The notes below the pieces were generated by a model. It saw only the letters and a list, made by a program, of their open reading frames with translations. It had not been told where the DNA came from and searched no databases. Source: Elusimicrobiota bacterium (lineage in GTDB: Bacteria > Elusimicrobiota > Elusimicrobia > UBA1565 > UBA9628). From it: a stretch of 64,000 bases of DNA. Positions 17,558-50,980 of the stretch are shown in pieces (the stretch's first letter is position 1; every line of letters begins with the position of its first letter). A program made the position numbers and the translations under genes. Location of the stretch: contig JACPOW010000010.1 in the NCBI GenBank assembly GCA_016191335.1, forward strand, positions 34,469-98,468, given 5' to 3'.

Positions 17558-17566
17558 GAGGGTAAT

Positions 17567-30745: not shown

Positions 30746-30827
30746 TGCCTTTTTTAATAGACGTTAAGGATGCACGGGTCTTAGCGCAGCTGGCGGGGAC
30801 TCGTGCCGACTCCGAGTCCTTACATGA

Positions 30828-32420: not shown

Positions 32421-34323
32421 AGAACGCTTCGAGGTCGTCCAACCCGTTCAGCTTCTTACACGGCGGCAGGGACCGCAAGAACGTCTTCCCGTACCCCTTC
32501 TTGAGCACCCGCGAGTCCAGGCACACCACCGCCCCGCGGTCCGTTCCGGTGCGGATGAGTCGCCCGAACCCCTGCCTGAACTTCATCACCGCCCGCGGCA
32601 GCGACCAGTCCTTGAAGTAATCCCGCCCGTTCTCCTCGAGCCAGCGCCTGCGCGCCTCCTCGAGCGCCGACGAGACGTTGGGGAACGGCAGCTTGACCAG
32701 AACCACGCACGACAGAGCCTCGCCCGGCACGTCGATGCCCTGCCAGAAGGTGTCCACGCCGAGGAGGACCGCGTCGCCGGCGTCCTCGAACTCGCGCACC
32801 AGGGCCTCGTGGCCGGAGGCGCCCTGCGCCCACACCGGGCGGCCGGGGATCTTCTTGCGCAGGAGGCCGTGGACGCGCTTGAGCAGCTTCCAGGAGGAGA
32901 ACAGGAGGAAGACCCCGCCCGGCACGCGCGCGACGATGTCGGCGCACATCTGCGTGACGGCGGCGGCGTGGGCCTCCTCGTCCTTGGGGTCGGGGACGCC
33001 CTCGACGGCCCAGAAGGCGGCCTGGGTGGAGTAGTCGTAGGGCGAGTCGAGGACCAGCTCGCGCGCCTCGGGCAGGCCGACGCGCGACTTGAAGTCCTTG
33101 AGGCCGTCGCCGATGGAGAGCGTGGCCGAGGTCAGTATGGCGGGGATGCCGCGGGAGAACAGGCCCTCGGCCAGGCGGCGGCCCACGTCGAGCGGGGCGG
33201 CGCGCAGCTCCGGGCCGGTGCGCGGCCAGGCCACCCAGCGGGCGGTCGCCGACGAGTCGGGCTTGAGCACGGCCATCAGGTCGTGGCCGAACTGCGCCAC
33301 GCGCGCGTGGAGCATGCGCATCTCGGTCTCGTCGGGGCGGCCCTCGGCGGCGGCCGCGGCCTCGGCCAGCGCCTTGTCGAGGGCGAGGAGCTCGGGCGGC
33401 GGGGCGTCGGGCGTATGCTCGAGCAGCTTGCCCTGGTTCTCCTCGTCGGGGGCGTTCAGGCCGCTGCCGCGGGCGAGGTCCTCTAAAAAGCGGCCGAGCC
33501 CGGAGGCCGCCTCGTCGGCCAGGGCCGACAGCGACTCGTCGGCGTACAGCTTGGCGGCGACGCGCACCTCCTCGGTCAGGGCCACGGCGCGGCCGAGGCC
33601 CGCGGCCACGCCGTAGCGCGCGGACGCCGCGTCCTCCAGGTTGTGCGCCTCGTCGAGGATCATCGCGTCGGAGGGGGGCAGGCGCGCGCCCGAGAGCAGG
33701 AGTGCGTGGTTGACGACGAGGATGTGGGCGCGGTCGGCGCGCTCCCGGTCGCGCCGCCACAGGCAGCGGTCCCAGTACGGGCCGCCGGGGCCCATGCAGA
33801 TGTCGGTGTCGCGCGCGACGCGGTCCCACAGGTTCTGCGGGATCAGCTCGGGCAGGTTCGAGCGGTGGCCGGTCTGCGCGTCGCGCGTCCACGCGTCGAG
33901 CCGGTCCAAGATGTCCTTGCCGGTCTCGGAGACGGTGTCGGGCCGCGCGCGCAGGCGCGCCAGGCGCTGGACGCACAGATAATTGTCCGCGCCCATGAGC
34001 ATCGCGTAGCGCAAGGGAAGGCCGAGGGCCTCCAGCGCCTTCGCGGCCGTGGGCAGCTCGTGGTTGAGGAGCTGCTCCTGAAGAGCGCGAGTATGCGTGG
34101 ACACGATCACGCGCCGGTCGCGCGTCACCGCCCACAGCGCCGCGGGCAGGAGGTACGCGAGGCTTTTCCCGACGCCGGTGCCCGCCTCCACGACGAGGTC
34201 CCCGCCGCGCTCGAGCGATTGCCACACCGCCCCGGCCATCGCTTCCTGGGGCGGGCGGGGCTCGTAGCCGGAACGGGCGCGCGCCAAAGCGCCTTCAGGC
34301 CCGAACAACGCGGCGAGGTCCAT
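32398..34323 (-). CDS. DinG/Rad3-family ATP-dependent DNA helicase (DEAH box)
   Basis: VVEAGTGVGKSLAYLLPA (Walker A); ILDEAHNLED (DEAH); C-terminal helicase motifs GAVVCLDSRVLKKGYG. Convergently overlaps the DUF962 gene by 23 nt. Confidence 0.8.
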   Translation of the reverse strand: MDLAALFGPEGALARARSGYEPRPPQEAMAGAVWQSLERGGDLVVEAGTGVGKSLAYLLPAALWAVTRDRRVIVSTHTRALQEQLLNHELPTAAKALEALGLPLRYAMLMGADNYLCVQRLARLRARPDTVSETGKDILDRLDAWTRDAQTGHRSNLPELIPQNLWDRVARDTDICMGPGGPYWDRCLWRRDRERADRAHILVVNHALLLSGARLPPSDAMILDEAHNLEDAASARYGVAAGLGRAVALTEEVRVAAKLYADESLSALADEAASGLGRFLEDLARGSGLNAPDEENQGKLLEHTPDAPPPELLALDKALAEAAAAAEGRPDETEMRMLHARVAQFGHDLMAVLKPDSSATARWVAWPRTGPELRAAPLDVGRRLAEGLFSRGIPAILTSATLSIGDGLKDFKSRVGLPEARELVLDSPYDYSTQAAFWAVEGVPDPKDEEAHAAAVTQMCADIVARVPGGVFLLFSSWKLLKRVHGLLRKKIPGRPVWAQGASGHEALVREFEDAGDAVLLGVDTFWQGIDVPGEALSCVVLVKLPFPNVSSALEEARRRWLEENGRDYFKDWSLPRAVMKFRQGFGRLIRTGTDRGAVVCLDSRVLKKGYGKTFLRSLPPCKKLNGLDDLEAFFKADAGA

Positions 34324-34349
34324 GCGCCATTGTAGTATTTCGCCCCGTT

Positions 34350-34420
34350 GGGGTCAGACCTCCCGTTGTTGCGAACTTGGGGTCTGACCCCGACAACGCA
34401 ACAGCGGGAGGTCTGACCCC
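34350..34420. repeat. REP/MITE-like palindromic element, copy A: 24-nt arm GGGGTCAGACCTCCCGTTGTTGCG, inner palindrome GGGGTCTGACCCC, inverted arm CGCAACAGCGGGAGGTCTGACCCC. Lies 3 nt after the giant-gene stop.
   Basis: Read directly. Near-identical to the element at 46877-46984. Confidence 0.6.
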
Positions 34421-34422
34421 GC

Positions 34423-37400
34423 TTATCGCGAGGCGAGGCGGCGGACGAGGGGGGACTCGCCGGGCATGTTGGGGACGAGGTCCTTGAGGGCCTGCTCGGC
34501 GGCGCGGCGGGCGGCGAGGGCGGCGGAAAGGGAGGCCTGGGCGGCGGCGAGCTCGGCGTCGAAGGCGTCGGCCTTGGCCTCGGGGCGGGCCTCGAGCCTC
34601 TTGAGCTCCTCTTCGTAGAGGCGCAGGCGCGCGTCCTGGCCCTCGGCGCCGAGCTCGAGGAGGTAGCTCATCACGACGCGGTCGGTGGCCGCGCGGCGCG
34701 GGTCGGCGGAGAGGGTGCCGCCGTCCTCGCGGGCGCCGAGGCCGAGCTCGGCCAGGGCGGCGAGGAAGGCGGCGCGGCCGGTCTCGGTGCGGACATAGGC
34801 CTCGGCGTAATTGCCGGCGCGGCCGCGCACGGTCTCGAGCGTCTCGCGGCGGGCGCCGCCGCGGAAGGCGGAGAGGGCCTCGGCGCGGGAGGCCTCGCGG
34901 TCCTCCTGGGCCCAGCGAGCCTCGCGCATCAAAGCGCCGGAGCCGAAGATGAGGTTCAGGCGGCCGTCCACCGTGCTCGGGTCCTTGGAGTACTCGCCCT
35001 CGCCGGGGTTGAGGGCGCCGTCGTTGTCCACGACCGCGGGGAACTGGCTCGGGTCGAAGTAGCGCTGGACCGGGTCCGGGAGTATTCCGAGGACGTCGAT
35101 GGCGTGGAGTAGGGTCCCGCCGGGGCCGCGGCGGACGGACGCCCCGCCCTCGCCGCGGCGCGCGTAGACGCCGCCGAGGTAGCCGTGCTGGTTCGGATCG
35201 CGCCCGGTGATCAGCTCGATCGGGATCTGCACGACCCCGCGAGGAAGCTCGAAGAGGAGGTCGGGCCACTGGCCGGGGGAGTAGGCCCATCGCCGGGCCG
35301 CGGCGGCGGCGCGGCGCGCGGAGGAGAGGCGGGCCTCCTCGAGCTCGCGGCCGAGGGTCACGGAGAAGCCGGTCTCCGGGTCGATCCAGCGCTTGGGCTT
35401 GGCCGTGGGGGCGTACTCCGCGTCGGTGTCCTTCCACACGCGGCCGGAGGCGTCCTCCACCCACCAGCCGCCGGCCTTGCGCGACAGGGACTCCTTGTCG
35501 TTGAAGACGCGGCGCACGCGGCCCTGCGCGTCGGTCTCGAGGGCCAGGGGCGCCTCGCCGAGCCAGGTCGCGGCGGTCCCGCCGAGCGCGATGGTCCTCG
35601 AGCCCACGCGGGCGGCGACGACCGTGCCGTCCTCGCCCAGGCCGACCGACAGGTCCGCGGTCTTGTGGAAGGTCCACTTGTGAGCGGGGTCCTTCGGGTC
35701 GCGGGCGGCGTCGGCGGCCTTCTTCATCTCGTCCTCGTCGAGGTACACGGCGGCGACCTCGCCGCCCTCGTCGAGGGCGAAGCCCCACGAGGAGAGCTTG
35801 AGCTTGAGCCAGCCGGCGCGGCGCGCGGACAGCGCCTGGGCCTTGGCCTCGGCGGCCAGGGCCAGCAGGCCGGCGCGGCCGAGCTCGGCGCGGCGGTAGG
35901 AGGCGGAGGCGCCCGAGGACTCCAGCGCCTCGAGCGAGGGATAGGCGGAGGGGTCGGGGGCGGGGCCGTCGACGCGCACGAGCGAGATCAGCTCCGACGG
36001 CGCACGAAGCCGTGCCGCGGGGACGGGGACGGCCTTGCGCAGGCCGGTGCGCGGGTCGGGGCGGGCCTCGAACCACAGCACGCGCCCCTCGCCCTCGAGG
36101 CGGCGCAGGTCGCCCAAGGTCAAGGACGAGCCGGCGGCGCCGCCGTCGAGCACGACCTCGGTGCTCGTCAGGGCCCGGTCGAGGGCCGCGCGGCGGGCGG
36201 CCTCGGCGCGGCGGGAGCGCGCCTGCGCGAGGCGCTCGCGGGCGGCGTCGTCGCCCTCGACGACCTCCGACCACCCCTGGCTCAGGGCCTCGTCGGCGGT
36301 CGCCGGCGCGCGGCCCACCCAGAGCTCGGGGGCGACGAAGCGCCGGCCGGCGAGGTCGCTGACGCGCCCCGCGGCCTCGAACTTGCGGACGTCCGCCGGG
36401 GAGGACCAGGTGACGCCGTCCTTGCTCCGCAGGGCGACGAGCGCGGGCAGGGCGTCCGTGCGGCCGATCCAGCGCGCCTTCATGCCGCGCAGGAAGGCGA
36501 CGGTCTCCGAGGCGGGGGCGATCTCGCGCGTCTCGGAGGGGTCGAAGCGCAGGGCGAGCAGGCGGGATTCGCCGAGGGCGATCGCCGCCTCGAGGGTCAG
36601 GATACCGCGGCCGTACTGCAGGCGGTCGCGGCGCCGGGCGAGGCTGGCGCGCACGCCGAACAGGCCGTCGAGGGAGCGCGTCCAGGCGGCGTCGGCGGCC
36701 GCCTCGGGCAGCTCGAGCGTGCGGGCCAGCTCCGCGTCGAAGGCGTCGAGGGCGGAGACGTAGGCGTCGAGCGCCTTGTCCTTGAGCAGATGGTCGGTCG
36801 GCGAGCCGGAGCGCGACAGCCAGGCGGCCTGCGCCTCGCGGCGCAGGCGGGAGACCGTCGCGTCGAGCTCGATCAAGCGGCGCACGGGCTTGTCGAGGGC
36901 GGGCGGCGCCTTGACGGCGGACCAGTAGACCAAGGAGAGCTCGGCGTTCAAGGCGCCCTCGGTCGCGAGCACCGAGCCCTCGGCCTCGGCCGCGGCGCCG
37001 GCCTCCTGGCGCAGGAAGCCCATCAGGCCGGTCCACGACGAGCCGCGCGAGGGATCCGCGGCCTGCATCTCGGCGAGTATGCGCTCCAAGGTCCCCTCGA
37101 TGAGGCGGCGGCGGCCCTGCAGGTCCACCTTCATCAGGCGCTCGAGGCGCTCGGCGGGGTCGTAGTCGTTGCTCTTGACCGCCGCCTCGTCGCGGGCGGC
37201 GATCCGGTAGCGCTCGACGAGCACGCGCAGCTCGGCGCGGATGGACTCCGGCGCGCCGGCGAGGAGCTCGTCGTTGCGGCGCTCGAAGTCGGCGTCGAGC
37301 AGACGGTCGGCCCACCAGGCGAGCAGGCGGGCGCGGGCGGTGCGCTCGGCGGGCTCCAGGGGATCGCGCCCGCCGTCGGCGGAGCGGGGGCGGGCGTAGA

Positions 37401-40400
37401 CGGAGGGCGTGACGCCGAGGGCGGAGAGCTCGGCGGTGAGGCGGGCGAAGTCCTCGGCCAGGGCCTGGGTGCCGGCGACGAACTCGAACTGCGCGCGGGA
37501 GGTCTCGGCCTGGGCGTCGGCGATCTCGGAGACCGGGGAGAGCTTCAGGCGCACGCGCTCGACGGCGCCGAGCAGGTTGCGGCGGGCGGCGAGCTCGCGC
37601 AGCCGGAGCGCCGCGACGAGGCGCGTCTTCTCGGCGACGGAGGCCATCAGCGTATGAAGGAGGAGGGACAGGCTCTGCAGGCGCCGGGAATCCTCGAGCT
37701 CGCGGCGCAGGGCGTCGTCGATGACCTCGACCAGGCCGGCGCGCACGCGCTCGGGGTCCGGCGCCTCGAGGAAGGCGCCCTGCACCCACGAGCCGCGGAA
37801 CAGGCCGATCGCGGCCAGCGGCGTGAAGCCGCGCGAGCTCATCTTCTCGGCGAGGAGGTCGGCGCGCAGCTGGGGCAGGCGGTCGCGTCCGGCGAGCTCC
37901 TCGGGAAGGCCCTGGGTGAACAAGGTCTTCTTGAGGAGGTCGAGGTCGAAGGCCTCGGCGTCGGCGACCTCGCGCGCCGCGGCGGAGGCGAGGTCTCCGT
38001 CGGCCGACGCGGGGAGCAGAGCGAGCAGGGCTTCGGGGGGCGTGCCGGGGGGAAGGCGCAGGAACGCCGCAGTCTCGGCGAGGTCGCGGGCCACGCGCGC
38101 GCGCGCCTCGGAGCCGATGCCCACGCCCTCGGACCAGCGCATCAGCGCCGCGTCGAAGCGCAGGCGCGCGAGCGCCATGTCGGCGCGGGCGCGGGCGGCG
38201 GCGGCCCCGGAGCGGCGGACCTCGTCGGCGCGCTCCTCGCGGAGCTTGGCCAGGGCCAGCATCGCCTCGGGCGGGGTGGACGGGCTGCGCAGGCGCGCCT
38301 CCATCCAGCCCTCGACGAAGCTCCGGCCGACGGGCTCCCCGCCCAAGGTCTGGCGGTGGTCGTAGAAGCGGATCGAGCCCATCGCGTCGAGCGGGGGCCC
38401 CGCCTCGAAGGCGCCCAGGTCGCGGGAGTCGAACTTCGGGGGTGTCTGGCGCAGGGCGGCCTCGCGCAGTCGGTCCTGGAGCTCGGCGTACGAGCCCGGG
38501 ACGCTCGCGGCCTCCTCGGCCTGCGCGCCGCCCCAGACGGCGATCTGCGCGCGGACCATCGCCTCCTGGCGCTCGAGCTCGAGCGCCTGCGCGCGGGAGG
38601 CGGCGTCGCCGCGGCCGGCGAGCGCGGCGCGCGCGGCGCGGATGCTGGACAGCTCCGAGGAGAGGGCGGAGCGCATCGCGGGCAGGGCCTCGTCGAACGC
38701 CTCGAGGGCGCGCTCGGCGGCCAAGGTCCGCTCGCGGGCGATGGCGACGATCTCCGGGGAGGGCAGGCCGTCGCCGGACAGCGCCGCGATCAGGCGGCCG
38801 AGCGAGCGGCCGACCATCGAGATCGGGTCGAGGCGCAGGCGGTCCACGCGCAGGCCCTTGTCCACCGCGGCCTCGACCGAGCGCGCGATCTTCAGCCGCG
38901 ACTCGAGCGCGTCGCGCGACGCCGCGGCGGGATTCAGCGCCGCGGAGCGGGCCGCGAGCGAGGCCAACGCGGTCTCCGCGTCCACGGTGAGCAGGAGCCG
39001 GGAGTCGAGCGGGCGGCCGAGCAGGTGGTTGGCGGCGACCTGGGACTCGCGCAAGCGCGCCGTCAGGTCGGACAGCTTGGCCCGGGCGGCCCTCAACTTT
39101 TCCGCGGCCCCGGGGCTGCCGTCCTGGGCGGCCATGAGGGCGGGGATCAATTCTCCTTCGTAGAGAGCGATCTGTTTGGCGGCATAGGAGGCCTCGAGCA
39201 GCGCCCGCGTCAGGTTGAGCGCCATGTCGGCGGCGGCCTTGTCCTGGAGGCGCGTGTACATGTCCGCCTCGGCGCCGCGGCGCCCCGCGTCGAGCTGGCG
39301 CAATTCCTCGGGGGCGAGCTCGATGCCGACGACGGGGAGCACCGCGAGGCCGGTGAGGCCGAAGGCGGGGATGAGGGCGACGCCCGCCGCCGTGATGTTC
39401 GCGCCGACCGAGAGGTCCACGTCCACCTTGCGGATGCGGCGGTCGGAGGCCTCGAGCAGCTCCCGGGCGGCCTGCGAGCGGCGGGCGAGGGCCTCCCAGG
39501 AGGCCGACTGGGCCACCGCCTGGTCGAAGGCCGCGTTCATGTCCTTGGGCTCGGCGCGCGTCTCGCCGGCGGGGCTCAGCGGCTGGCCCGCGGAGTCGAG
39601 GGAGGCCCAGGCGTCCTGGAGGGAACCCTCGATGCCGAAGGTCAGAGCGTCGGTCGCCGCGTCGAGCCAGCGGCGCGCGCGGGCGCGCAGCTCGGGCGCG
39701 CCTATGAGGGCGTTGCGGTACAGGCGGATGCCGTCGGAGAGCTCCAGGCGCGCCGCGGAGGCCGCCTCCTCGGCGCCGCGGGCGCGCTCGTTCCAACCGC
39801 GCGCGGAGATGCGCTCGGAGCGGGCGCGCAGGCGCGTGGACTTCAGGCGGGCGGCCATCTCGAGCAGGCTCGCCTGGGACTGGAGAATGAAGGACTCGTT
39901 GACCTTGCCCTTGGTCGGGTCGTAGATCGGCAGGCGCACGGTCACCGCGACGCCGAGGGCCTGGCTCGACATCAGGTCGGGGAGCTGGGCGCCGACGCCG
40001 ATGGTGAACTTCTCGATCCAGGGGATCCAGTCGAGCACCGCGAGCGAGGCCTCAGGCACCTTCATCGAGGTGCGCGCGCGGGAGAACAGCGCACCGAGAC
40101 GCTCGGGGGACGCCAGCGCGCGGGAGACCAGGCGCAGGACGCGGTCCAGGTCGTTGGGGTTGACGCCGTCGAAGGGCAGCGGCTCCTCGGGGCCGCGGCC
40201 GGTCAGGGCCGAGTAGCGCAAGGTCGCGCGGCGCAGGGCGTCCGTCGCCTCGATGACCCGGACCTCGGCCTCGGCGCGCAGGACCTGGTCGTCGGCGTGC
40301 GCCGCGAGGAACACCGCGAGGTGGCGGCGCCACTTGGCGAGCGCGATCTCCGCCAGGGCCGACTGCCAGGCCTTCGCGGTGTCGAGCAGTTGTTCCTCGA

Positions 40401-43400
40401 GATCGAGGCCGAGGGCGAACAGCGCGGCGCTGCGCGCCTCGACGAGCTCGCGCTGGCTCTTGCTCAAGGTCATCTCGGTCTGGGTGCCGACCTGGAAGCC
40501 GCCGCCTGTGGCGCGCTCCGCGGTGCCCGGGCCGACGGGGCCGGAGACGAAGCCGACCATCGCGCGCTGGCGGATGTTGTCGAGGAAGGCGCCGGACTTC
40601 TGCAAAGTCGCGACCTCGCGGGAGAGGCGGCCGATCTCGAGGACGATCAGGCGGCGGCCCGCGTCGGCGTCGAAGGCGCGGGCGAGCTCGGCCAGGGCCG
40701 GGTTGTTGGCCTCGTCGCGGGCGAAGAAGTCGGAGAGCGCGGCGTCGAACTCGGCCATCGTCTTGCCGCCGCGCAGGTCCTCGGCCGCCGCGCCGGTCAC
40801 CGAGCGCCACAGCTCGCCCAAGGTGTAGGTGGACTCGAAGGAGACGGCGAGGCGGTCGTTGAGGCCGATGTAGCGGCTGCCGTAGGACAGCGCCAGCTCG
40901 GAGTTCTCGCCGGTGCGCTTGCGGACCTCGGCGAAGTAGGCGGCGCCCGAGCCGGCGAGCTTGCCCTGGGCGTTGATGGTCCAGCCGAGGTCCGGGATCT
41001 CGTAGGAGAGGCGGCCGTTGAAGGAGTCGATGCGCTCGCCGCGCTCGGCGCCGCCGCCGACGGAGAGCCGCGTCTCCCGGCCGCCGACGTCGAAGGTGAA
41101 GCCCTTGAGGATGGTCGCGCCCAGCGCCTGCTGGGTCAGCGGATCGGTGCCGCCGGTCTTCGAGTAATAGAACTCGAGGTTGAAGGTGTCTTTCTGGTCG
41201 AGGGCGGCGGCGAGGTCCACGCCGACGCCGAGCTTGGAGCGCGTGTACTCCCGGTCCTGGCCCCGGCCCTCGATCAGGAAGCTCTGGTCGAGCGTGGGGT
41301 CGTAGCCGGTGAAGTCGAGGTTGACCTCCTGGAGGAAACGGCGCGGGTCCTTGGCGAACAGCGCGGTCTGCTCGGCGCTCAGCGAAAGCACCTTGTTGAA
41401 CTTGATCTTGGACTTGAGGTTGCCGCCGTAGTAGGACGGCTTGCCGCCGGAATCGTTGGCGGCGAAGTCCGCGAAGCCGGCCGCGCCGAAATACACCTTG
41501 CCGTCGGCGACCATCAGGGCGAAATCGTCGAAGACCATCATGCGGGCCTCGCGCGCCTGCGAGCCGACCGTCAGGTCCGGGGGGATGTCCTGGATGAACT
41601 TGTGGAAGGTGACGTCGAGGTAGTTGACCATGCGGTCGCTGTCGAGCGACTCGACGCGCACGGTCACGCCCTGGTCGCCGAACGGGGCGTTGCCGGCCGA
41701 CGGGGGGCTGGCGAAGCGGTAGCCGACGACGCTGACGTTCTGGCCCCACAGCTTGAGCGCGTTGCCGAAGGTGACCTGCTGCGCGGTCTCCAGGCCCCCG
41801 GGGGTGGAGAACTCGCTCTGATAGACGAGGTAGAAGCCGTCGGTGCCCTCGCCGACCTCGACCATCTTGGTGCCGGGCAGGAGCTGGGAGAGGGCGCGCG
41901 GGTCCTTCAGGATCTGCTCGCGGATGGCGACGAGGTCGCGGGCGGCCGCGTCGGCGGAGAGCGCGCCGAAGAGCTGGGAGAGGAAGCGCTCGAACTGGGA
42001 CTTGGGTATCACCATCGTCTGCGGGCCGCCCCGGTTCTCGGCGAGCCAGGCGGGGCCGGTGCGGCCGACGGCGGTCACGCGGGAGGCGAGCTCCGGGGAG
42101 AGGCGGCCGAGGTCCCCGACGGGCTCGAGCTCGCGATCGAGGGCGACGCGCTCCGCGCCGAGCGCCTTGAGCGTGTCGGCGACGGCTTTCGCGGCCCCGT
42201 CGCGGGCGCGCTCGGCGCGGCGGGCCTCGATGTTCGTCTCGAGGACGCCGCGCGTTTTATCCTGAATAGCCGAGATGTTCTGGGCGACGCGGGAGAGGGC
42301 GGACTCGTTGGGGTTGTCGAGCTGCTGGAGCCAGCCGACGACCGTCGTACGCTGTTCCTGGATCCCCTTGCGCGACTTCGCGAGCGCGTCGCGGAACTCG
42401 AGGGCGGCCTTGCGCTCGGCGTCGAGGGCTTCGTCGCCGGAGGAGTACACCTCGCCGAGCGTGTCGTAGTAGGTCTGCACGCGGCCGACGGTGCCGACGC
42501 CTTCCTGGCTCCACTGGGTCTTCTGGCCGAAGAGGTCGGCGCCTTCGCGGGCGACGACGGACAACGAGTCGAAGGCGGAGACCTTGCGGGCCAGGACGGC
42601 CTCGCCGCCGGTGAGGTCGCCGCCGACCCAGGCGAGGTCGGCGTCGAGGTCGGAGAGGCCGGCGTTCAGGCCGGCGGCGGCGCGGGCGAGGAAGGCTTCG
42701 AAGACCGGGATGCGGTCCTTGAGGTACGCGTCGGAGGTCGAGACGAGGGCGTCGGCGAAGAGGAAGCGGGCGAGGCTCTCCGCGTAGGAATCCCCGTTGA
42801 CGGAAGCGGTGGTGGGGACGAGGCGCTTGATGGCTTCCAAACCAAGAAGGGCGATCTTCTGGTTTTGGGAGACGTCGAGAGGGGGCTGGGTGCCGGTGGG
42901 GATGCCGGAGCCGCCGCCGACGCCCAGCTCGGTTCCGCCTGAAGCGGCGAGGGCCGCGTCGGCGACCGCCTTTATGGCCGACGCCATGTTCTGGAGCGTC
43001 CGGGCGTCGGCCATAGAAGTAAGGCGCGGGCCGGTGGAGGGGGATTCGGGGTCGAGATCGGTGGGGAGCTTATACTTAACGGCGAACGAATGTTGATTCG
43101 ACGTGAGACCGTCGAGCTGCGACAGAATATTGTTAACGGCAACGGCGGTGGCGTTCATTTTGACGGCCCTTCCACGGCGTTCCTCGCGGTAAACGGCGGC
43201 GCGACGGACCAGCGAATAGGGAACGGATTCGCCGTAAAGATCCTCCATCTCGGTGTTCGCGGGATCTTTACGGCGTCTCATGGAGTCTTGATAATCGACG
43301 ACGATCTTTTTGTAGTCCTCGTATTGCTTGCGCACGGAGGCGATGCCGGCGCGGGCTGCGCCCGCGTCGTAGGCCTTGGCACCGTTGGATGCGAGACCCC

Positions 43401-45963
43401 AGGGTAAAGCTTTGCGTAACCCATCGGATATCTTCACGTACAGGTTCTTTTTTTCCTTATAAAGGGTGGCGTAACCGTCCTCATCGCCGTTCGGATCGCT
43501 CTGAGCGATCCGATCTCGCTGAAACGGGATCAAGGTCTTATCGAGAAGGTCCTGCAATTCGACGAGCATGGGCTTCATGGTCTCGTTCAGCAATGAACGT
43601 TTCCTATCGATGAGTGCCTGCCCCTGCGCGGCGGGCGCGCCGGCGTTGATGTAGGCTTCATCCGCCGATATGTCGTCGAGCATCGTCTGCATTCCCGCGA
43701 CCGAGCGTTCGAAGGCGGCCTTGGCCTTCGGCAGCACGTCGCGGACGGGCTTCTCCAAGGCCTTCGCGGTCGCCTTGGCCTCGAGCCGGCGGATCGTCAG
43801 GTCGCCGAGGAAGGGGATGAGGCGAGACAAATCGATTTTTCTTGTCTTCGCATCGAACCCGGCGTCGGTGTCGGGGAAGGTCACGGCGTCGAGGCGGTCG
43901 AGGAGGTCGGGCAGGGCGGTGCGAAGGTCCTCCGCGCTCTTTCCTTTAAGACGCGGCAGGGCGGCGCCGGGGGCGCCCTTCTCGATCAGGGCCGAGAGCT
44001 CGTCGGCGGAGGCGGCGAGGGAGTCGCTGGCCGAGCCCAGGCGCTCCTCGAGGGCGAGCTGCTCGGCGCGCCAGGCGACGAGGGACTCCAGGCGCGTGCC
44101 GCCGAAGTCGTCGGCGACGCGGGTGGTCCCGCTCGGGTCCATCGCGCGGGTGACGGCGGCGAGCAAGGTCGCGTGCTCGTCGCGCTGGCCGCGCCAGAAG
44201 GCGCGGCGGCGCTCGAGCAAAGCGCGGGTCTGGGCGAGGGTCGGGTTCGACACGGCCTCCGACGGCACGCCCGGGACCGCGATGACGAGCACGCCGGCGA
44301 ACTCGACCGGGGCGGAGCCGATGCGCGAGTCGGCCTCGGCGAGCTTGGCGCGGTAGCCGGCGACCTCGGCCGACTTGGCCTGGAGGTAGTCGAGGGAGAG
44401 GTCGGAGACGCCGGAGGGGTTCGACGAGCCGTGCTGCAGGCCCGCGACCAAGGTCGGGAGCAGGGCCAGGCGGCGGTCGTACTCGGCCGGCGCGTCGGCG
44501 CTGCGGCCGCGGTCGCGCGCGTCGATCGAGCTCAGCAGGCCCGACACCTCCGCGCGGAAGCGCGCCACCGCGGCCGACAGGCCGCCCAGGCGGACGGCGA
44601 GCGAGGCGAAGTCGTCGCGCTTCTTCGCGTCGTCGGCGGCCTGCGCCTCGGCCTCCTTCTTCCACTCCTCGGTCCGGCCGGCTTGCTGGCCCGCGCCGGC
44701 GGCGCCGCCCGCGTTGTCGGCGCGGCGCTTCTCGATGAGCTTGAGCTTGTCGTCGACGAGCGCCTCCATCTTGCCCAGCGCCGCGTCGGCCGAGTTCAGG
44801 AGGTTGAGGCTGTAGGAGAGGTCCATCACCATCGCCAGGCGCGCGAAGTTCTTGCGGAACTCGAGGGTGTCGCGGCCGTCGCGCCGCTCGCGCAGGGCCG
44901 CCGAGCGGGAGCGGTCGGCGACGGCGAGCATCGCCTCCGCGGCGTCGCGCAGGGCGATGTTGCCCTGCAGCTCCGCGTTCAGCGCCTCGACGCGGGCCAG
45001 GCGCGCGGCGACGGCGGCCTCCGCCGGGGTGCCCGCGAGGTCCGGCTTGACCGCCGGCGAGCCCGACGGCGAGGCCGCGATGTCGTCGAACATGCGGCGC
45101 AGGGCCTCGAGCGAGGCCCACTTCGACTCGCGGGAGTCCTCGGCGCCGGATCCCGTCTGGCCCTCGGGGAGCAGGGGGGCGACGCGATCGAGCAGGCGGT
45201 CGAGGCGCGCGATCTCGTCCGCGTCGGCGGCGCCGCCGGCCAGGTCCCCGCTCTGGCCCAGGCGCTCGCGCAGCTCGCGCTCGGAGAGGGCGGCGGAGAG
45301 CGGCGGGAGCTTGACGGGGTTCAGCGCGGCCGGCTGCGGGATGGCCCGGACGGCCCGGGGCTCGCCGAAGTCGGGCAGCGCGAGGGCCGCGACGCGGGCG
45401 GCGGCCTGGTCGTGGGCGGCGAGCGCCGCGCGCGGGTCCGGCGCCGAGGCGAGGCTCAGGCCGAGGGCGCGCGCGAGCTTGGGCAGGGCCGCGCGCGCCG
45501 CGCTCGCCGAGGCCCCATGACGGCGCGCCCACTCCCGCGCCGCCGCGCGGCCTTCCGCGGGGGCGGCGTCGACCGCGGCGGCGACCGCCCGGCGCAGGGC
45601 GTCCTCGCCGGGCTCGCCCTGGAGGAGCGCGGCCAGCGCGTCGAAGGCGGCCTGCGGGCCGGCCGGGGCGACGAGGCGGGGCGTCGCGGCGGGCACCAAG
45701 GACAGGACCGCCGGCGCGGGCGCCCAGCCGGAGGCGGTCACGGCGTCGCGCAGGGCCTCGGCGGGAGGAAGGGGGGAGGGAAGCGCGGCGGAGACGGCCC
45801 GGACCTTCGGGGCGACGGCGGCGAGGGCGGGGGAGGCGCCCTGGAGGACGAGCGCCAAGGAGAGGGCGCACGCCGTGAGCCGGCGCGTCGCCCCGGGACG
45901 GGATTCTCGGCGAGAGGGGTATCCCATTGGGCCTAAGCATAGGCTCCAAAGACCTACATCCAC
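34423..45963 (-). CDS. Giant (3,846 aa) secreted, Ala/Arg/Glu/Leu-rich, predominantly alpha-helical protein. Contains a central amphipathic beta-rich segment and at least two TolC/OEP-like strand+helical-hairpin repeats, with kilobase N- and C-terminal extensions.
   Basis: GTG at 45963, or more likely ATG at 45927 (MGYPSRRESRPGATRRLTACALSLALVLQGASPALAAV, signal peptide). Single open frame of 11.5 kb with diverse composition. TolC-like motifs GVAVTVRLPIYDPTKGKVNESFILQSQASLLEMAARLKSTRLRARSE and LSVGANITAAGVALIPAFGLTGLAVLPVVGIELAPEELRQLDAGRRGAEADMYTRL. Beta-rich segment around TFNLEFYYSKTG / LSYEIPDLGWTINAQGKLAG / LAVSFESTYTLGE. The opposite-strand and alternate-frame ORFs are low-complexity G/A/R/P junk. 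Confidence 0.7.
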   Translation of the reverse strand: MDVGLWSLCLGPMGYPSRRESRPGATRRLTACALSLALVLQGASPALAAVAPKVRAVSAALPSPLPPAEALRDAVTASGWAPAPAVLSLVPAATPRLVAPAGPQAAFDALAALLQGEPGEDALRRAVAAAVDAAPAEGRAAAREWARRHGASASAARAALPKLARALGLSLASAPDPRAALAAHDQAAARVAALALPDFGEPRAVRAIPQPAALNPVKLPPLSAALSERELRERLGQSGDLAGGAADADEIARLDRLLDRVAPLLPEGQTGSGAEDSRESKWASLEALRRMFDDIAASPSGSPAVKPDLAGTPAEAAVAARLARVEALNAELQGNIALRDAAEAMLAVADRSRSAALRERRDGRDTLEFRKNFARLAMVMDLSYSLNLLNSADAALGKMEALVDDKLKLIEKRRADNAGGAAGAGQQAGRTEEWKKEAEAQAADDAKKRDDFASLAVRLGGLSAAVARFRAEVSGLLSSIDARDRGRSADAPAEYDRRLALLPTLVAGLQHGSSNPSGVSDLSLDYLQAKSAEVAGYRAKLAEADSRIGSAPVEFAGVLVIAVPGVPSEAVSNPTLAQTRALLERRRAFWRGQRDEHATLLAAVTRAMDPSGTTRVADDFGGTRLESLVAWRAEQLALEERLGSASDSLAASADELSALIEKGAPGAALPRLKGKSAEDLRTALPDLLDRLDAVTFPDTDAGFDAKTRKIDLSRLIPFLGDLTIRRLEAKATAKALEKPVRDVLPKAKAAFERSVAGMQTMLDDISADEAYINAGAPAAQGQALIDRKRSLLNETMKPMLVELQDLLDKTLIPFQRDRIAQSDPNGDEDGYATLYKEKKNLYVKISDGLRKALPWGLASNGAKAYDAGAARAGIASVRKQYEDYKKIVVDYQDSMRRRKDPANTEMEDLYGESVPYSLVRRAAVYREERRGRAVKMNATAVAVNNILSQLDGLTSNQHSFAVKYKLPTDLDPESPSTGPRLTSMADARTLQNMASAIKAVADAALAASGGTELGVGGGSGIPTGTQPPLDVSQNQKIALLGLEAIKRLVPTTASVNGDSYAESLARFLFADALVSTSDAYLKDRIPVFEAFLARAAAGLNAGLSDLDADLAWVGGDLTGGEAVLARKVSAFDSLSVVAREGADLFGQKTQWSQEGVGTVGRVQTYYDTLGEVYSSGDEALDAERKAALEFRDALAKSRKGIQEQRTTVVGWLQQLDNPNESALSRVAQNISAIQDKTRGVLETNIEARRAERARDGAAKAVADTLKALGAERVALDRELEPVGDLGRLSPELASRVTAVGRTGPAWLAENRGGPQTMVIPKSQFERFLSQLFGALSADAAARDLVAIREQILKDPRALSQLLPGTKMVEVGEGTDGFYLVYQSEFSTPGGLETAQQVTFGNALKLWGQNVSVVGYRFASPPSAGNAPFGDQGVTVRVESLDSDRMVNYLDVTFHKFIQDIPPDLTVGSQAREARMMVFDDFALMVADGKVYFGAAGFADFAANDSGGKPSYYGGNLKSKIKFNKVLSLSAEQTALFAKDPRRFLQEVNLDFTGYDPTLDQSFLIEGRGQDREYTRSKLGVGVDLAAALDQKDTFNLEFYYSKTGGTDPLTQQALGATILKGFTFDVGGRETRLSVGGGAERGERIDSFNGRLSYEIPDLGWTINAQGKLAGSGAAYFAEVRKRTGENSELALSYGSRYIGLNDRLAVSFESTYTLGELWRSVTGAAAEDLRGGKTMAEFDAALSDFFARDEANNPALAELARAFDADAGRRLIVLEIGRLSREVATLQKSGAFLDNIRQRAMVGFVSGPVGPGTAERATGGGFQVGTQTEMTLSKSQRELVEARSAALFALGLDLEEQLLDTAKAWQSALAEIALAKWRRHLAVFLAAHADDQVLRAEAEVRVIEATDALRRATLRYSALTGRGPEEPLPFDGVNPNDLDRVLRLVSRALASPERLGALFSRARTSMKVPEASLAVLDWIPWIEKFTIGVGAQLPDLMSSQALGVAVTVRLPIYDPTKGKVNESFILQSQASLLEMAARLKSTRLRARSERISARGWNERARGAEEAASAARLELSDGIRLYRNALIGAPELRARARRWLDAATDALTFGIEGSLQDAWASLDSAGQPLSPAGETRAEPKDMNAAFDQAVAQSASWEALARRSQAARELLEASDRRIRKVDVDLSVGANITAAGVALIPAFGLTGLAVLPVVGIELAPEELRQLDAGRRGAEADMYTRLQDKAAADMALNLTRALLEASYAAKQIALYEGELIPALMAAQDGSPGAAEKLRAARAKLSDLTARLRESQVAANHLLGRPLDSRLLLTVDAETALASLAARSAALNPAAASRDALESRLKIARSVEAAVDKGLRVDRLRLDPISMVGRSLGRLIAALSGDGLPSPEIVAIARERTLAAERALEAFDEALPAMRSALSSELSSIRAARAALAGRGDAASRAQALELERQEAMVRAQIAVWGGAQAEEAASVPGSYAELQDRLREAALRQTPPKFDSRDLGAFEAGPPLDAMGSIRFYDHRQTLGGEPVGRSFVEGWMEARLRSPSTPPEAMLALAKLREERADEVRRSGAAAARARADMALARLRFDAALMRWSEGVGIGSEARARVARDLAETAAFLRLPPGTPPEALLALLPASADGDLASAAAREVADAEAFDLDLLKKTLFTQGLPEELAGRDRLPQLRADLLAEKMSSRGFTPLAAIGLFRGSWVQGAFLEAPDPERVRAGLVEVIDDALRRELEDSRRLQSLSLLLHTLMASVAEKTRLVAALRLRELAARRNLLGAVERVRLKLSPVSEIADAQAETSRAQFEFVAGTQALAEDFARLTAELSALGVTPSVYARPRSADGGRDPLEPAERTARARLLAWWADRLLDADFERRNDELLAGAPESIRAELRVLVERYRIAARDEAAVKSNDYDPAERLERLMKVDLQGRRRLIEGTLERILAEMQAADPSRGSSWTGLMGFLRQEAGAAAEAEGSVLATEGALNAELSLVYWSAVKAPPALDKPVRRLIELDATVSRLRREAQAAWLSRSGSPTDHLLKDKALDAYVSALDAFDAELARTLELPEAAADAAWTRSLDGLFGVRASLARRRDRLQYGRGILTLEAAIALGESRLLALRFDPSETREIAPASETVAFLRGMKARWIGRTDALPALVALRSKDGVTWSSPADVRKFEAAGRVSDLAGRRFVAPELWVGRAPATADEALSQGWSEVVEGDDAARERLAQARSRRAEAARRAALDRALTSTEVVLDGGAAGSSLTLGDLRRLEGEGRVLWFEARPDPRTGLRKAVPVPAARLRAPSELISLVRVDGPAPDPSAYPSLEALESSGASASYRRAELGRAGLLALAAEAKAQALSARRAGWLKLKLSSWGFALDEGGEVAAVYLDEDEMKKAADAARDPKDPAHKWTFHKTADLSVGLGEDGTVVAARVGSRTIALGGTAATWLGEAPLALETDAQGRVRRVFNDKESLSRKAGGWWVEDASGRVWKDTDAEYAPTAKPKRWIDPETGFSVTLGRELEEARLSSARRAAAAARRWAYSPGQWPDLLFELPRGVVQIPIELITGRDPNQHGYLGGVYARRGEGGASVRRGPGGTLLHAIDVLGILPDPVQRYFDPSQFPAVVDNDGALNPGEGEYSKDPSTVDGRLNLIFGSGALMREARWAQEDREASRAEALSAFRGGARRETLETVRGRAGNYAEAYVRTETGRAAFLAALAELGLGAREDGGTLSADPRRAATDRVVMSYLLELGAEGQDARLRLYEEELKRLEARPEAKADAFDAELAAAQASLSAALAARRAAEQALKDLVPNMPGESPLVRRLASR

Positions 45964-45979
45964 AAGGAGCCTGGGACCT

Positions 45980-46009
45980 ATCCTAGCATGGGCCGTTCGG
46001 CCCAGTCAA
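45980..46009 (-). promoter_or_regulatory. Candidate promoter of the giant gene: TTGACT-N18-TAGGAT on the minus strand, with a GGGCCG-NN-CGGCCC inverted repeat in the spacer
   Basis: Reverse complement of 45980-46009; only sigma70-like hexamers within the 272-bp upstream gap. Confidence 0.2.
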
Positions 46010-46235
46010 GTGCCTGATGTTAAGTCCTCGTTCTCCGTCGGCGACTTAACCTTTAAAGCCTGGCACCATGTGTCGAAGGTGTTACTATCCCCGGACTTAT
46101 CCACCTATTCACACGGGCCCTTCTCCCGTCTCGGAACGGCGCTCCGGAGGGGGCGCGCGCGGCGGCGCGGGCCGGAGGTCCTACGACGGCTTTCCGGTTC
46201 AAGTCCCGCCCGTAATAATGCTAAACTCCGGCCCG

Positions 46236-46571
46236 ATGGAAACCCCTTCCGCCTCCGACTCGGTCGAGCGCCTCTGGAAGACGGCGCGCTACCTGCCGCA
46301 GACCGTGCGTCTGCTGGGGACGCGCTACCGGACGCTCTTCCTCGCCCACGCCCAGCGCTGCCGCCCGCGCGGGGACGCGGCCGTCGTGGCCGACGCCCTC
46401 GCGTTCGCGGATTTCCTCTCCAAGCAGGAGCGCGTCGGGCTGCTCGCCCCGGAGAGGACCGCGCTGCGCCGCGACGAGCGCGCCCTGCGCCGCCGCTTCC
46501 GCCTGCGCCGCGACGGCGACGCCGTCGAGGCGATCGAGAAGTGGAAGATCCTGCAGTGGCTCAGGCTCTGA
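46236..46571 (+). CDS. Hypothetical small protein (about 111 aa), translationally coupled to clpS
   Basis: METPSASDSVERLWKTARYLPQTVRLLGTRYRTLFLAHAQR.... Stop TGA 46569-46571, 1 nt before the clpS ATG. Alternative start at 46218. Confidence 0.4.
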   Translation: METPSASDSVERLWKTARYLPQTVRLLGTRYRTLFLAHAQRCRPRGDAAVVADALAFADFLSKQERVGLLAPERTALRRDERALRRRFRLRRDGDAVEAIEKWKILQWLRL

Positions 46572-46876: not shown

Positions 46877-46984
46877 GGGGTCAGACCTCCCGTTGTTGCG
46901 TTGTTCCATCTGGAAATTCGGATTCGAACAACGCAACAACGGGAGGTCTGACCCCATCTCAGCGACAGCGGGAGGTCCGACCCG
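46877..46984. repeat. REP/MITE-like palindromic element, copy B: perfect 27-nt inverted arms (GGGGTCAGACCTCCCGTTGTTGCGTTG / CAACGCAACAACGGGAGGTCTGACCCC) around a 25-nt loop containing TTCCA-TC-TGGAA, then a third partial arm CAGCGGGAGGTCCGACCCG followed by TTTTTT (terminator-like) after clpS
   Basis: Read directly. Same family as 34350-34420. Confidence 0.6.
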
Positions 46985-48052: not shown

Positions 48053-50980
48053 TTGTTGAAGCCCTCACTTTGGATCGCGACGGCCGCCGCGGCCCTCGCC
48101 TTGATCGCGCCGCCCGTGCTGGCGGCGGACAAAGGCGCGGCCCGCCGTCTGCTGATCGAGGGCGACGCGCTGTACCGGCGCGGAGACTTCAAGGACGCGA
48201 TGCGCTCCGTCAACGAGGCGCTGCTGGCCGACGCGCGCAACGGAGACGCCTACGAGCTGCGCGCGCGGCTGTGGCACGCGGCCGGCGACCTGACGCGGCA
48301 GAAGGCGGACGCGACGAAGGCGCTCGAGCTTCTCGGCGTCGGGACCGGCTCGCTGGCGGTCGACGAGCTCGTCGCGCAGGGCGGGGCGCAGCTGCTGCTC
48401 GGCCGCGTCGACAAGGCCCTGGAGAGCTTCAACGCCGCGCTGAAGGCCGACCAGAAGACGCCGAAGGCGCTGTACGCCCGCTCCCGGGTGTGGCGCGAGA
48501 AGGCGGACTGGGCGAAGTGCCTGGCCGATCTGAACGACGCGCTCAAGCTCGAGCCCAAGACGGCGCTGTGGCTGTTCTCCCGGGGACGCACCTGGTACGA
48601 CAAGGGCGACGACGCGAAGGCGGTGGCGGACCTGACCGCGGCCCTGCGCTCCAACAAGAATTTCACGATGGCGTTCGCGCTCGTCGGCTCGGCGATGGCC
48701 CGCCAGGGCGACCTCAAGCGCGCGGCGAAGGCCTACGACCGCGCGATCGCGATCGACCCCGAATACTCCTACGCGTACCTCGGCCGGGCCGCGCTGAAGC
48801 TGCGCAAGGGCGACGAGCCCGGCGCGCTGAAGGATTTCGAGGAGGCCGTCCGGGCCGACGCGCAGGACTACGCGCCCTACTTCAACCGCGGCGAGCTGCA
48901 CTGGCGCGGCGGGCGCCGCGAGCAGGCGCTCTCCGACTACCATAACGCGATGACCTCGGCGAAGCTCACGCCCGAGGCCGCGGTCGCGATCGGCGACCGC
49001 TACCAGTCGCTGCAGCTCTGGAAGGACGCCGTCGCCGCCTACGGGCGCGCCTTCGACCTCGGCTCCGGCGTCCCGGCGCTGACCCGCCGCGCGCGCGTCT
49101 TCGAGGCGGACAAGGACCTCAAGAAGGCGCTCGCCGACCTCGACGCGGCCGTCAAGCTCGAGCCGGAGAACGCCCAGGTGATCGCCGCGCGCGGGGGCCT
49201 GCTCGCGCGCATGGGCCAGGACGGGCCCGCGCTGCAGGACCTCACCCGCGCCGTGCGGCTCGACCCGGTCGACCCCGAGATCCTGGTCGCCCGCGCGAGC
49301 TTTTACGCCCGCGTCGACAAGCCGTCCCTGGCCCTCGAGGACTTCACCAAGGCGATCGCGTCCGACGGCAAGCACGCCGAGGCCTACAACGGCCGCGGCG
49401 CGCTGTACGCCAACTCCCTCAAGGAGCCCGAGAAGGCCCTGCAGGACGTGATGAAGGCCGTCGCGCTCAAGCCGCGCGAGCCCGGCTACCACTACAACCT
49501 CGGCTCCCTGCGCCTGCGCAACCGCCTGTACCTGAAGGCGATCGACTCGTTCAACACCGCGCTGGCGCTGAAGGGGCCCGCGGCGAGGATACTCGAGCGC
49601 CGCGCCGACGCCGAGTTCCAGATCGGGGACCACTCCGGCGCCATGCGCGACATCGAGGCCGCCCTCGAGAAGGACCCGCGCAACGCCTCGATCTACGACA
49701 CGCTGGGCCACATCCGGCTGCGCCAGCGCGACTACGAGCAGGCCGTGCGCGACCTCAGCCAGGCGCTGCAGCTCGACGCCAAGCTCGCGGGCGCCTACCA
49801 GCACCGCGGCCTCGCCTACGCCTCGCTCGGCCAGATGAAGGCGGCCCAGGCCGACTTCAGGAAGTCCCTGGAGCTCGAGCCCCGCTCCAAGGACACCTGG
49901 ACCTACCTCTGCCAGGCGCGCCGCCTCGCCAAGGACCCGCGGGAGGCGCTCAAGGCCTGCGAGCGCGCCATCGAGATCGACAGCCAGCACGGCCCCGCCT
50001 ACCTGCAGCGCGCGCTCGCCAAGTTCGCGCTGAAGCAGTACCCGCGCGTGATCGAGGACATCGACACCGCCTGGGCGCTCGGCACGCGCCGCGCCGAGGG
50101 CCTGATCGCGAAATCCATCTCCCACGCCGCCGCGCGCCAGTACAAGGAGGCGCACCGCACCTACCTCCAGGCGGTCGGCATGGACCCCTACGTCCGCAGC
50201 CCCTACATCGGGTTCTCGGCCGGGCACCCGGAGGGGGACGACTTCCTCTCCGCGATCGTCGACCTCGACGCCCAGATGATCAAGGACCTCGGCGACCCGT
50301 ACGTGTTCATCCTGCGCGCCGACTCCCTCCACAACTCCGAGCAGTTCGACAAGGCCGTGCTCGAGTACACGAAGGCGATGGAGATCGACGGCTCGATCGC
50401 CGACGCCTACGTGGGCCGCGGCGTCGCGCTGACCGCGCAGGACGCCCTCGAGGCGGCCCAGCAGGACCTGGTGCGCGCCCTCGAGCTCGAGCCCAACGAC
50501 GCGGGCGCGCGCGTGAAGCTGGCGATCGTGCTGACGATGCGCCGCAACTACCGCGCCGCCATCGGCGAACTGGGGAAAGCCCTGCAGGCGGACCCCAAGA
50601 ACGCCGAGGCCTACCTGCGCGCCGGCAACGTCCACTACTTCCTCAAGGATTACCCGAAGGCCCTCGAGAACTACGCGCTGGCGGTGAAGAGCGACCCGCT
50701 CGACCCGAACGCGCTCAACGGCCTCGGCCTCGGCTACTTCGCGCTGAAGCGCCAGGACGAGGCGCTCGAGGCCTTCTCGCGCGCGATCGCGACGAACTCG
50801 CTGATCGACCGCTTCTACCGCAACCGCGCCTCGGTGTGGACCGCCTCGCAGAAGTTCGGCAACGCCGCGGGCGATTTCAAGACCGCGAGCATGGTCAACA
50901 CCGACCCCACCGTCATCGACGAGTACAAGCGGCTCATAGAGGAAAGCGAGAGCCGCTCCGCCAAGGGCAAGTCGTCGTAG
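48053..50980 (+). CDS. Exported tetratricopeptide-repeat protein (about 25 TPR units, 975 aa)
   Basis: TTG start. Signal peptide KPSLWIATAAAALALIAPPVLAA. Continuous TPR periodicity (AxxYxxRGxAyxxxGdyxxAxxDyxxAlxLdP motifs repeated throughout). Confidence 0.7.
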   Translation: MLKPSLWIATAAAALALIAPPVLAADKGAARRLLIEGDALYRRGDFKDAMRSVNEALLADARNGDAYELRARLWHAAGDLTRQKADATKALELLGVGTGSLAVDELVAQGGAQLLLGRVDKALESFNAALKADQKTPKALYARSRVWREKADWAKCLADLNDALKLEPKTALWLFSRGRTWYDKGDDAKAVADLTAALRSNKNFTMAFALVGSAMARQGDLKRAAKAYDRAIAIDPEYSYAYLGRAALKLRKGDEPGALKDFEEAVRADAQDYAPYFNRGELHWRGGRREQALSDYHNAMTSAKLTPEAAVAIGDRYQSLQLWKDAVAAYGRAFDLGSGVPALTRRARVFEADKDLKKALADLDAAVKLEPENAQVIAARGGLLARMGQDGPALQDLTRAVRLDPVDPEILVARASFYARVDKPSLALEDFTKAIASDGKHAEAYNGRGALYANSLKEPEKALQDVMKAVALKPREPGYHYNLGSLRLRNRLYLKAIDSFNTALALKGPAARILERRADAEFQIGDHSGAMRDIEAALEKDPRNASIYDTLGHIRLRQRDYEQAVRDLSQALQLDAKLAGAYQHRGLAYASLGQMKAAQADFRKSLELEPRSKDTWTYLCQARRLAKDPREALKACERAIEIDSQHGPAYLQRALAKFALKQYPRVIEDIDTAWALGTRRAEGLIAKSISHAAARQYKEAHRTYLQAVGMDPYVRSPYIGFSAGHPEGDDFLSAIVDLDAQMIKDLGDPYVFILRADSLHNSEQFDKAVLEYTKAMEIDGSIADAYVGRGVALTAQDALEAAQQDLVRALELEPNDAGARVKLAIVLTMRRNYRAAIGELGKALQADPKNAEAYLRAGNVHYFLKDYPKALENYALAVKSDPLDPNALNGLGLGYFALKRQDEALEAFSRAIATNSLIDRFYRNRASVWTASQKFGNAAGDFKTASMVNTDPTVIDEYKRLIEESESRSAKGKSS

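Follow-up and report, generated by a model that had tools for sequence, protein, structure and literature searches.

The window considered here, i.e. the whole stretch of 64,000 nucleotides taken from contig JACPOW010000010.1 of the Elusimicrobiota bacterium assembly GCA_016191335.1, carries a giant gene whose product is a Sec-exported giant outer-membrane protein, distantly homologous to the TolC/outer-membrane factor (OMF) family and predicted to work like it. Along the chain, a signal peptide is followed by an N-terminal region of about 1,330 amino acids (aa), a 20-stranded barrel, an array of TolC/OMF repeats and, at the C-terminus, some 1,000 aa more. The reading towards which we lean, as drawn from a structure model, is that one chain would fold into a complete pseudo-threefold TolC-like channel-tunnel beside its own porin-like barrel, with both flanks in the periplasm.

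The giant gene and the architecture of its product

The gene sits on the minus strand, which corrects an earlier note made on this DNA from the letters alone; the single long open frame that this note had reported is confirmed, since 34423..45963 is one open reading frame (ORF) of 3,846 codons counted from a GTG and is conserved along its whole length. Positions in the protein follow this numbering from the GTG at 45963, in which the ATG at 45927 corresponds to M13. As the N-termini of orthologues read MGYPSRR or MGAPSRR, this ATG is probably the true start, giving a protein of 3,834 aa. Ala, Arg, Leu and Glu dominate the composition except around aa 1400-1800, in agreement with the earlier note for all the rest of the chain, and the motifs it had quoted are all located where it placed them (aa 1593, 1652, 1705, 2010 and 2184). 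Regarding the guanine-plus-cytosine (GC) content, said to match that of the host, the claim had to be revised: GC ranges over 0.60-0.78 across the window, and the gene, with 0.66-0.78, is among its richest parts. Very long ORFs also overlap the giant gene in alternative frames, namely 35185-42942 on the plus strand (2,585 aa) and 34295-39796 on the minus strand (1,833 aa), and are read as by-products of high GC rather than as genes. The features of the giant gene are as follows.

34423..45927, minus strand: coding sequence starting at the probable ATG and encoding the 3,834-aa giant protein, stop codon included
45823..45927, minus strand: Sec-type signal peptide, aa 13-47, MGYPSRRESRPGATRRLTACALSLALVLQGASPALA/AV, from sequence reading and hydropathy
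41833..45822, minus strand: N-terminal region of about 1,330 aa, rich in Ala/Arg/Leu/Glu, from composition
40822..41832, minus strand: porin-like β-barrel of 20 strands, aa 1378-1714, from the AlphaFold2 (AF2) model
40072..40656, minus strand: TolC-type repeat 1, aa ~1770-1964, hairpin 1797-1834, helices of 52 and 29 aa, motif RYSALTGRGPEEPLPF, from AF2
39517..40071, minus strand: TolC-type repeat 2, aa ~1965-2149, hairpin 1985-2014 including RLPIYDPTKG, helices of 66 and 36 aa, from AF2
38917..39516, minus strand: TolC-type repeat 3, aa ~2150-2349, very hydrophobic hairpin 2177-2216, helices of 60 and 31 aa, motif NHLLGRPLD, from AF2
38437..38916, minus strand: TolC-type repeat 4, aa ~2350-2509, hairpin about 2371-2395 (in the AF2 model from about 2374), long helices, partly inside this model
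37897..38436, minus strand: inferred TolC-type repeat 5, aa ~2510-2689, hairpin 2530-2560 (SIRFYDHRQT...SFVEGWMEARLRS), helices, motif FLRLPPGTPPEAL, from motifs and spacing
37411..37896, minus strand: inferred TolC-type repeat 6, aa ~2690-2851, hairpin 2712-2737 (GFTPLAAIGLF...VQGAFLEAPDP), long helix, return helix ending LTAELSALG, from Pfam matches in relatives
34426..37410, minus strand: C-terminal region, aa 2852-3846 (about 1,000 aa), first part helical by composition

The AF2 model covers aa 1340-2480 and was obtained with an alignment of 27 sequences, at a mean predicted local distance difference test (pLDDT) of 80.4 and a predicted template modelling score (pTM) of 0.65; an earlier run with a 10-sequence alignment was poor (pLDDT 48.9). 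The first domain of the model, which is also the most conserved part of the giant family, is predicted to be a closed barrel whose antiparallel strands are even in number and show the lipid-facing hydrophobic dyad pattern, the alternation of strand hydrophobicity amounting to 2.4 in the barrel and 3.4 in the hairpins further on, against 1.3 in helical controls. The β-rich block of the earlier note is this porin-like barrel, which is separate from the TolC-like part.

Beyond the barrel, the modelled unit opens with a membrane β-hairpin; from there, one helix descends over 52-66 residues, another of about 30 residues runs back, and short helices connect to the next hairpin. This is the structural repeat described for OMFs, in which a pair of transmembrane strands is combined with a long helix and with two shorter ones that make up a pseudo-continuous helix (PMC8277102, section 6.2). 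When the model was compared with known structures using Foldseek, the matches fell into the same two groups as the model itself, namely large barrels and OMF chains, the latter comprising OprN-type, CusC, VceC, SilC and TolC chains at E values of 6e-6 to 1e-4, with alignments of about 430 columns, i.e. a whole protomer. Hairpins start at aa 1797, 1985, 2177, 2371, 2530 and 2712, which corresponds to a spacing of 159-194 aa, and no hairpin-like element was found after aa 2851. We infer a count of six repeats over aa ~1770-2851, of which three are fully modelled, the fourth partly (E1035-1039, H1064-1109 and H1115-1137 in the numbering of the model) and two deduced as listed above. The TolC/OEP-like core proposed in the earlier note thus keeps its TolC-type fold but is not a single core of ordinary size, as it extends over some 1,080 aa with about six repeats, i.e. 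three protomer equivalents; the two TolC-like segments singled out at the time are hairpins 2 and 3 of this array.

Sequence profiles converge on the same repeats. The OEP family of Pfam (PF02321, gathering score of 22 bits) matches P0069, a distant family member that carries the NCBI name 'TolC family protein', with 28.7 bits over residues 2062-2202, which map to repeat 3 (the 'LSVGANITAAGVALIPAFGL' segment), and it matches a consensus of 48 relatives with 24.2 bits over profile positions 40-182, at repeat 2 (RLPIYDPTKG). In the region aa 1780-2480, PF02321 was found in 4 of 31 relatives, and in the region aa 2480-3000, at repeat 6, in 8 of 28; it is the only recurrent Pfam family in either. 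All the repeat-6 matches listed share one register (OEP profile 87-177, after hairpin 2712-2737), and the same repeat in the family consensus gives an E value of 0.011. OEP was not found in the helical control regions, for which 28 relatives (aa 700-1340) and 15 relatives (aa 3000-3846) were scanned. The sensitive check of the core that the earlier note had proposed is provided by these searches, and both the Foldseek scores and the PF02321 scores of P0069 and the family consensus speak for the TolC assignment.

In profile-profile comparisons with hhalign, module 1+2 aligns with module 3+4 without a shift in register (P 4e-4), and repeat 1 matches repeat 3 with a probability of 73%, which fits a duplication of a two-repeat unit. 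The detection of internal repeats depended on the depth of the alignment: nothing significant came out with 17 sequences, and with 55 sequences only module 1+2 versus 3+4, module 5+6 being too diverged for this test. Against a weak OEP profile of four sequences (CusC, Citrobacter CusC, MdtP and TolC), P values of 0.0036 for module 1+2, 0.0014 for repeat 2 and 0.029 for repeat 6 were obtained; in the search for CusC homologues, the matches listed were all at least 79% identical. Family alignments compared with the single E. coli TolC sequence gave nothing (probability of about 1%), such a single-sequence template being too weak, and no canonical OEP is present among the collected loci.

Export and flanking regions

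The signal peptide announced by the earlier note is borne out by its Sec shape, its n-region being rich in Arg and followed by the hydrophobic LTACALSLALVLQGASPALA and an AxA site, as well as by a hydrophobic segment at aa 32-50 in the hydropathy profile and by comparable N-termini in most full-length relatives. The N-terminus of the giant protein contains no lipobox in a valid position, and a lipoprotein reading was rejected since no hydrophobic region precedes Cys32. Anchoring in the inner membrane was likewise rejected in the absence of any further hydrophobic helix in the hydropathy profile, where the only other stretches that stand out are the strongly hydrophobic β-hairpin at aa 2196-2214 and, to a moderate degree, aa 548-566.

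The flanks had been estimated in the earlier note at about 1,800 and 1,200 aa and described as coiled-coil extensions. Measured from the domain limits, about 1,330 aa precede the barrel and about 1,000 aa follow the last repeat, and conservation together with a Pfam scan indicates conserved helical domains instead of generic coiled coil. The N-terminal region is read as mostly α-helical from its composition, is conserved from about aa 700 onwards across both paralogue clades of the family (see below) and has only non-specific coiled-coil matches in Pfam. In the C-terminal region, a block at aa ~3559-3730 (window 34774-35289) is dense in residues invariant across 15 relatives, namely PRG..P.E..TGRDPNQ.GY.G, DPSQ.P (given also as DPSQFP) and VRGR.G.Y; it matches no Pfam family and no PDB relative by sequence, and may represent an undescribed binding or catalytic domain. 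As every membrane element of the protein has an even number of strands, both flanks should, according to the model, be periplasmic rather than surface-exposed.

A proposed single-chain channel-tunnel and its alternatives

Canonical OMFs form 12 strands and 12 helices from three two-repeat protomers; according to the textbooks, TolC-type exit ducts are obligate homotrimers, and how they assemble and gate is accounted for by three identical protomers. In the giant protein, the same numbers, 12 strands and 12 helices or pseudo-helices, would come from six repeats, i.e. the full complement of a TolC trimer from a single polypeptide, and the array would close on itself to make a single-chain, pseudo-threefold TolC-like duct in the outer membrane. 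The ~2,300 aa of flanks would stay periplasmic, extending or scaffolding the tunnel and docking unlinked inner-membrane or cell-wall partners, so that the whole protein would be an exit duct, a scaffold spanning the envelope, or both. One continuous array is favoured because the spacing of the repeats is even and pairs of them are not set apart by long linkers.

A bolder version of this proposal, to which we would give somewhat less than an even chance, is that the protein represents the first natural single-chain TolC, in which a triplicated OMF module, with its six repeats closed into one 12-stranded channel-tunnel, is joined to the 20-stranded barrel and a scaffold of ~2,300 aa in an all-in-one envelope-spanning conduit, as a core envelope component of the Elusimicrobiota that carry it. 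Such a conduit could stand in for separate adaptor proteins.

Several observations weigh against a single-chain duct. The window protein itself, whole or in segments, has no Pfam or NCBIfam match at E <= 1, and no relative of it was retrieved from the PDB by sequence or profile search. Repeats 5 and 6 lie beyond the modelled aa 1340-2480, no profile match supports repeat 5 individually, and module 5+6 reaches a P value of 0.053 against the weak four-sequence OEP profile, marginally better than controls (0.1-0.95). In addition, two separate barrels in one chain are unusual and would require a plausible assembly route. Finally, no linked partner genes were seen in any clade looked at, so that the transport role is only predicted; this missing linkage is no evidence against a duct, since tolC of E. 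coli is also unlinked.

Instead of closing on itself, the array could assemble as a homotrimer, as in canonical OMFs, each two-repeat module pairing with its counterparts on two further chains, which would yield up to three ordinary 12-stranded channels, or one channel-forming module with the others degenerate. We consider this arrangement unlikely: in the AF2 model, the linkers between two-repeat modules (~52-63 residues) are no longer than those inside modules, as in one continuous array, three adjacent trimeric channels held on short linkers would be sterically awkward, and the pTM quoted above was reached with the monomer.

Besides, the protein could be a structural tether or spacer rather than a duct, the barrels being anchors and the ~2,300 aa of flanks a stalk or lattice reaching to the cell wall or inner membrane, much like OmpM/SlpA. 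This is also improbable as a replacement for the single-chain duct, although the two are not exclusive of each other. Neither in the window protein nor in the flanks of its relatives was any SLH, OmpA-like, LysM or other wall-binding domain detected, the geometry of the TolC repeat is kept in detail, including its helices of 52-66 residues, and the match of the barrel to OmpM1 is generic for large barrels.

Display of the flanks at the cell surface, a possibility raised in the earlier note, would have the barrels hold an adhesin or a coiled-coil fibre of great length. It would suit the large size and helical composition of the protein, and for related phyla the existence of giant surface proteins has been proposed (bioRxiv 10.1101/2023.11.21.568195). 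It is nonetheless very improbable, as the 20 strands and the hairpins would return both flanks to the side from which they started, i.e. the periplasm, according to the AF2 model, and as no adhesin, Ig-like or carbohydrate-binding domain and no passenger-type architecture were found.

Conservation of the giant family

That the long frame could be an artefact, arising by chance in DNA of high GC or by the fusion of several genes at assembly, has a negligible probability: spurious long ORFs do occur on other frames here (e.g. the 2,585-aa one at 35185..42942, plus strand) and shorter frames exist in three related loci (L011, L023 and L024), but more than 20 independent Elusimicrobiota assemblies keep the full uninterrupted frame at 37-91% identity, dN/dS, the ratio of nonsynonymous to synonymous substitution rates, is 0.18-0.36 between the window gene and four relatives, and the confident AF2 model matches known folds. 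Taken in 50-aa bins over the whole chain, identity to 16 orthologues nearly always amounts to 40-75%, and it is because of this whole-length conservation, together with the dN/dS values, that the giant gene is considered real and conserved, not a chance frame. The stop codons in orthologues by which the earlier note had proposed to recognise a fusion were looked for; where contigs permit, orthologous frames are uninterrupted and about 3,570-4,030 aa long, and these intact frames effectively refute a fusion artefact. The three interrupted frames measure 1,057 aa in L011 (CP096137.1, a complete genome), 2,320 aa in L023 and 1,705 aa in L024, the latter with runs of N, and are probably due to sequencing or assembly frameshifts, or are pseudogenes.

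A scan of one genome per species returned 53 loci, of which 51 are labelled Elusimicrobia or Elusimicrobiota and the remaining two belong to unclassified 'bacterium' metagenome-assembled genomes (MAGs). Searching with the core region gave matches only to fragments from Elusimicrobia MAGs, and public assemblies yielded no record identical to the window protein, whichever of the two starts was used. Among 1.84 billion representative proteins, an exhaustive HMMER search collected no more than 107 matches; those above 3,000 aa span about 3,200-6,900 aa, most of the others are fragments, and no TolC of ordinary size is found among them. The family further includes a second, paralogous clade (L026, L029, L030, L031, L033 and L050, as well as L057:1-8781) with frames of roughly 4,800-5,650 aa, the surplus length being N-terminal, and in several MAGs such a paralogue coexists with the ~3,850-aa form. 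At L057, another giant gene (>3,018 aa, no Pfam match) stands directly upstream of the paralogue, with a Y1 transposase gene in between. One fragment, 92% identical to the window protein, occurs on a 5.2-kb contig labelled Candidatus Endomicrobium trichonymphae (L042), which looks mis-binned since the other close relatives all come from high-GC Elusimicrobiota MAGs.

The barrel domain alone has relatives outside this family, in the Omnitrophota MAG proteins P0097 (6,932 aa), P0095 (2,503 aa), P0101 and P0105. The architecture of P0095 is odd, with a SecA-like N-terminus (SecA_DEAD and P-loop_SecA), an M23 peptidase and a weak LysM match accompanying the barrel domain.

Genomic neighbourhood

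Two intergenic features border the giant gene.

45928..46232, no strand: intergenic region of lower GC, bounded by the giant gene and by a small plus-strand ORF, from sequence reading
34350..34420, no strand: palindrome of 71 nt resembling a repetitive extragenic palindromic (REP) element, 2 nt past the stop codon, two 35-nt arms, 86% complementary

From this layout, the giant gene appears to be monocistronic, with a presumed promoter region at 45928..46232. Downstream, the palindrome separates it from the gene of a DinG-like helicase (ATG at 34323) and is likely a transcription terminator or a REP element. A related copy, sharing with it the 16-mers GGGGTCAGACCTCCCG and CGGGAGGTCTGACCCC, is present at 46877-46955, ~0.9 kb upstream of the start of the giant gene and past the small divergent ORF; owing to this second copy, the REP-like repeats mentioned in the earlier note can be taken as real. 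Upstream and divergent from the giant gene are the small ORF (~46233-46571, plus strand), an aldo/keto reductase and a TPR protein. In line with what the earlier note had stated about pumps, no adaptor, membrane-fusion, ABC, RND or MFS pump gene adjoins the giant gene in the window, and three related loci hold no partner gene within ~10 kb, except for an unrelated MFS gene ~6 kb away in L056. The TPR protein, of ~980 aa, is encoded at 48053-50980 (plus strand) in the window and, again divergently upstream, at L056:3615-6569, an orthologous locus with 50% identity, and a DinG-like helicase lies downstream of the giant gene in both; the order TPR protein, giant gene, DinG-like helicase may thus be a conserved synteny.

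Elsewhere in the window, the only RNA gene detected is a tRNA-Ser (anticodon GCT) at 30655-30746 (plus strand). A second high-GC block (6,600-18,700, minus strand, GC 0.70-0.76) contains ORFs of 861, 683, 734, 977, 290, 330 and 355 aa that are unrelated to the giant family; one of the ORFs in this block, 16565-17557, starts like an AAA ATPase as judged by eye.

Significance and comparison with known systems

With these results, a fold and a testable role are assigned to a conserved giant gene from a poorly known and mostly uncultured phylum; in the literature, no description was found of this giant family or of a single-chain TolC. If the single-chain duct is true, a natural six-repeat chain would mean that a TolC-type channel is buildable from one polypeptide, and the threefold symmetry would be broken, allowing asymmetric gates or docking sites. 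It would also offer a ready system for studying how the β-barrel assembly machinery (BAM) inserts a TolC-like barrel beside a second barrel of the same chain. Should the flanks be a periplasmic scaffold, the protein would be relevant to the question of what sets the spacing of the two membranes.

The shared barrel domain links the giant gene to giant proteins of Omnitrophota; these relatives share the barrel only, with no TolC array. Giant proteins of Omnitrophota and of related PVC-group phyla, in which very large genes are also found, are the subject of a study by West-Roberts et al. (bioRxiv 10.1101/2023.11.21.568195). The proteins treated in that study are much larger, of at least 10,000 aa, and interpreted as predatory cell-wall-degrading weapons; TolC appears nowhere in its text and 'outer membrane' only once, in the reference list.

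Regarding the barrel, the comparison is with large monomeric barrels, namely Wzi, PgaA, BcsC, AlgE-type exopolysaccharide porins, Omp85/TpsB and OccK/OccAB, with which it shares no sequence family, having no Pfam match and only 5-13% identity to them. It counts 20 strands, whereas most of the matched barrels have 16-18, and unlike known large barrels it sits in the middle of a giant chain where no POTRA, TPR or plug domain was detected.

The attachment porins of the OmpM/SlpA type, from Negativicutes and Deinococcus-Thermus, resemble the giant protein in combining an outer-membrane barrel and a long periplasmic helical part in one protein, and a role in the spacing or tethering of the envelope is plausible for both. 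In contrast to them, the giant protein has no SLH or other wall-binding domain, and its helical part includes bona fide TolC-type repeats instead of a simple coiled-coil stalk; architecture and phylum differ as well.

The closest comparison is with the TolC/OMF family (PF02321; TolC, OprM, OprN, CusC, VceC, MtrE and CmeC), whose members are of about 450-500 aa, as against ~3,834 aa. The giant protein differs from them by its preceding 20-stranded barrel, its conserved flanks of ~1,330 and ~1,000 aa, its shorter equatorial segments and the lack of a lipobox, the window protein being moreover below Pfam detection. Above all, a TolC/OMF protomer has two repeats per chain where the giant protein has about six (aa 1770-2851), the trimer of the former being perhaps replaced in the latter by an internal triplication.

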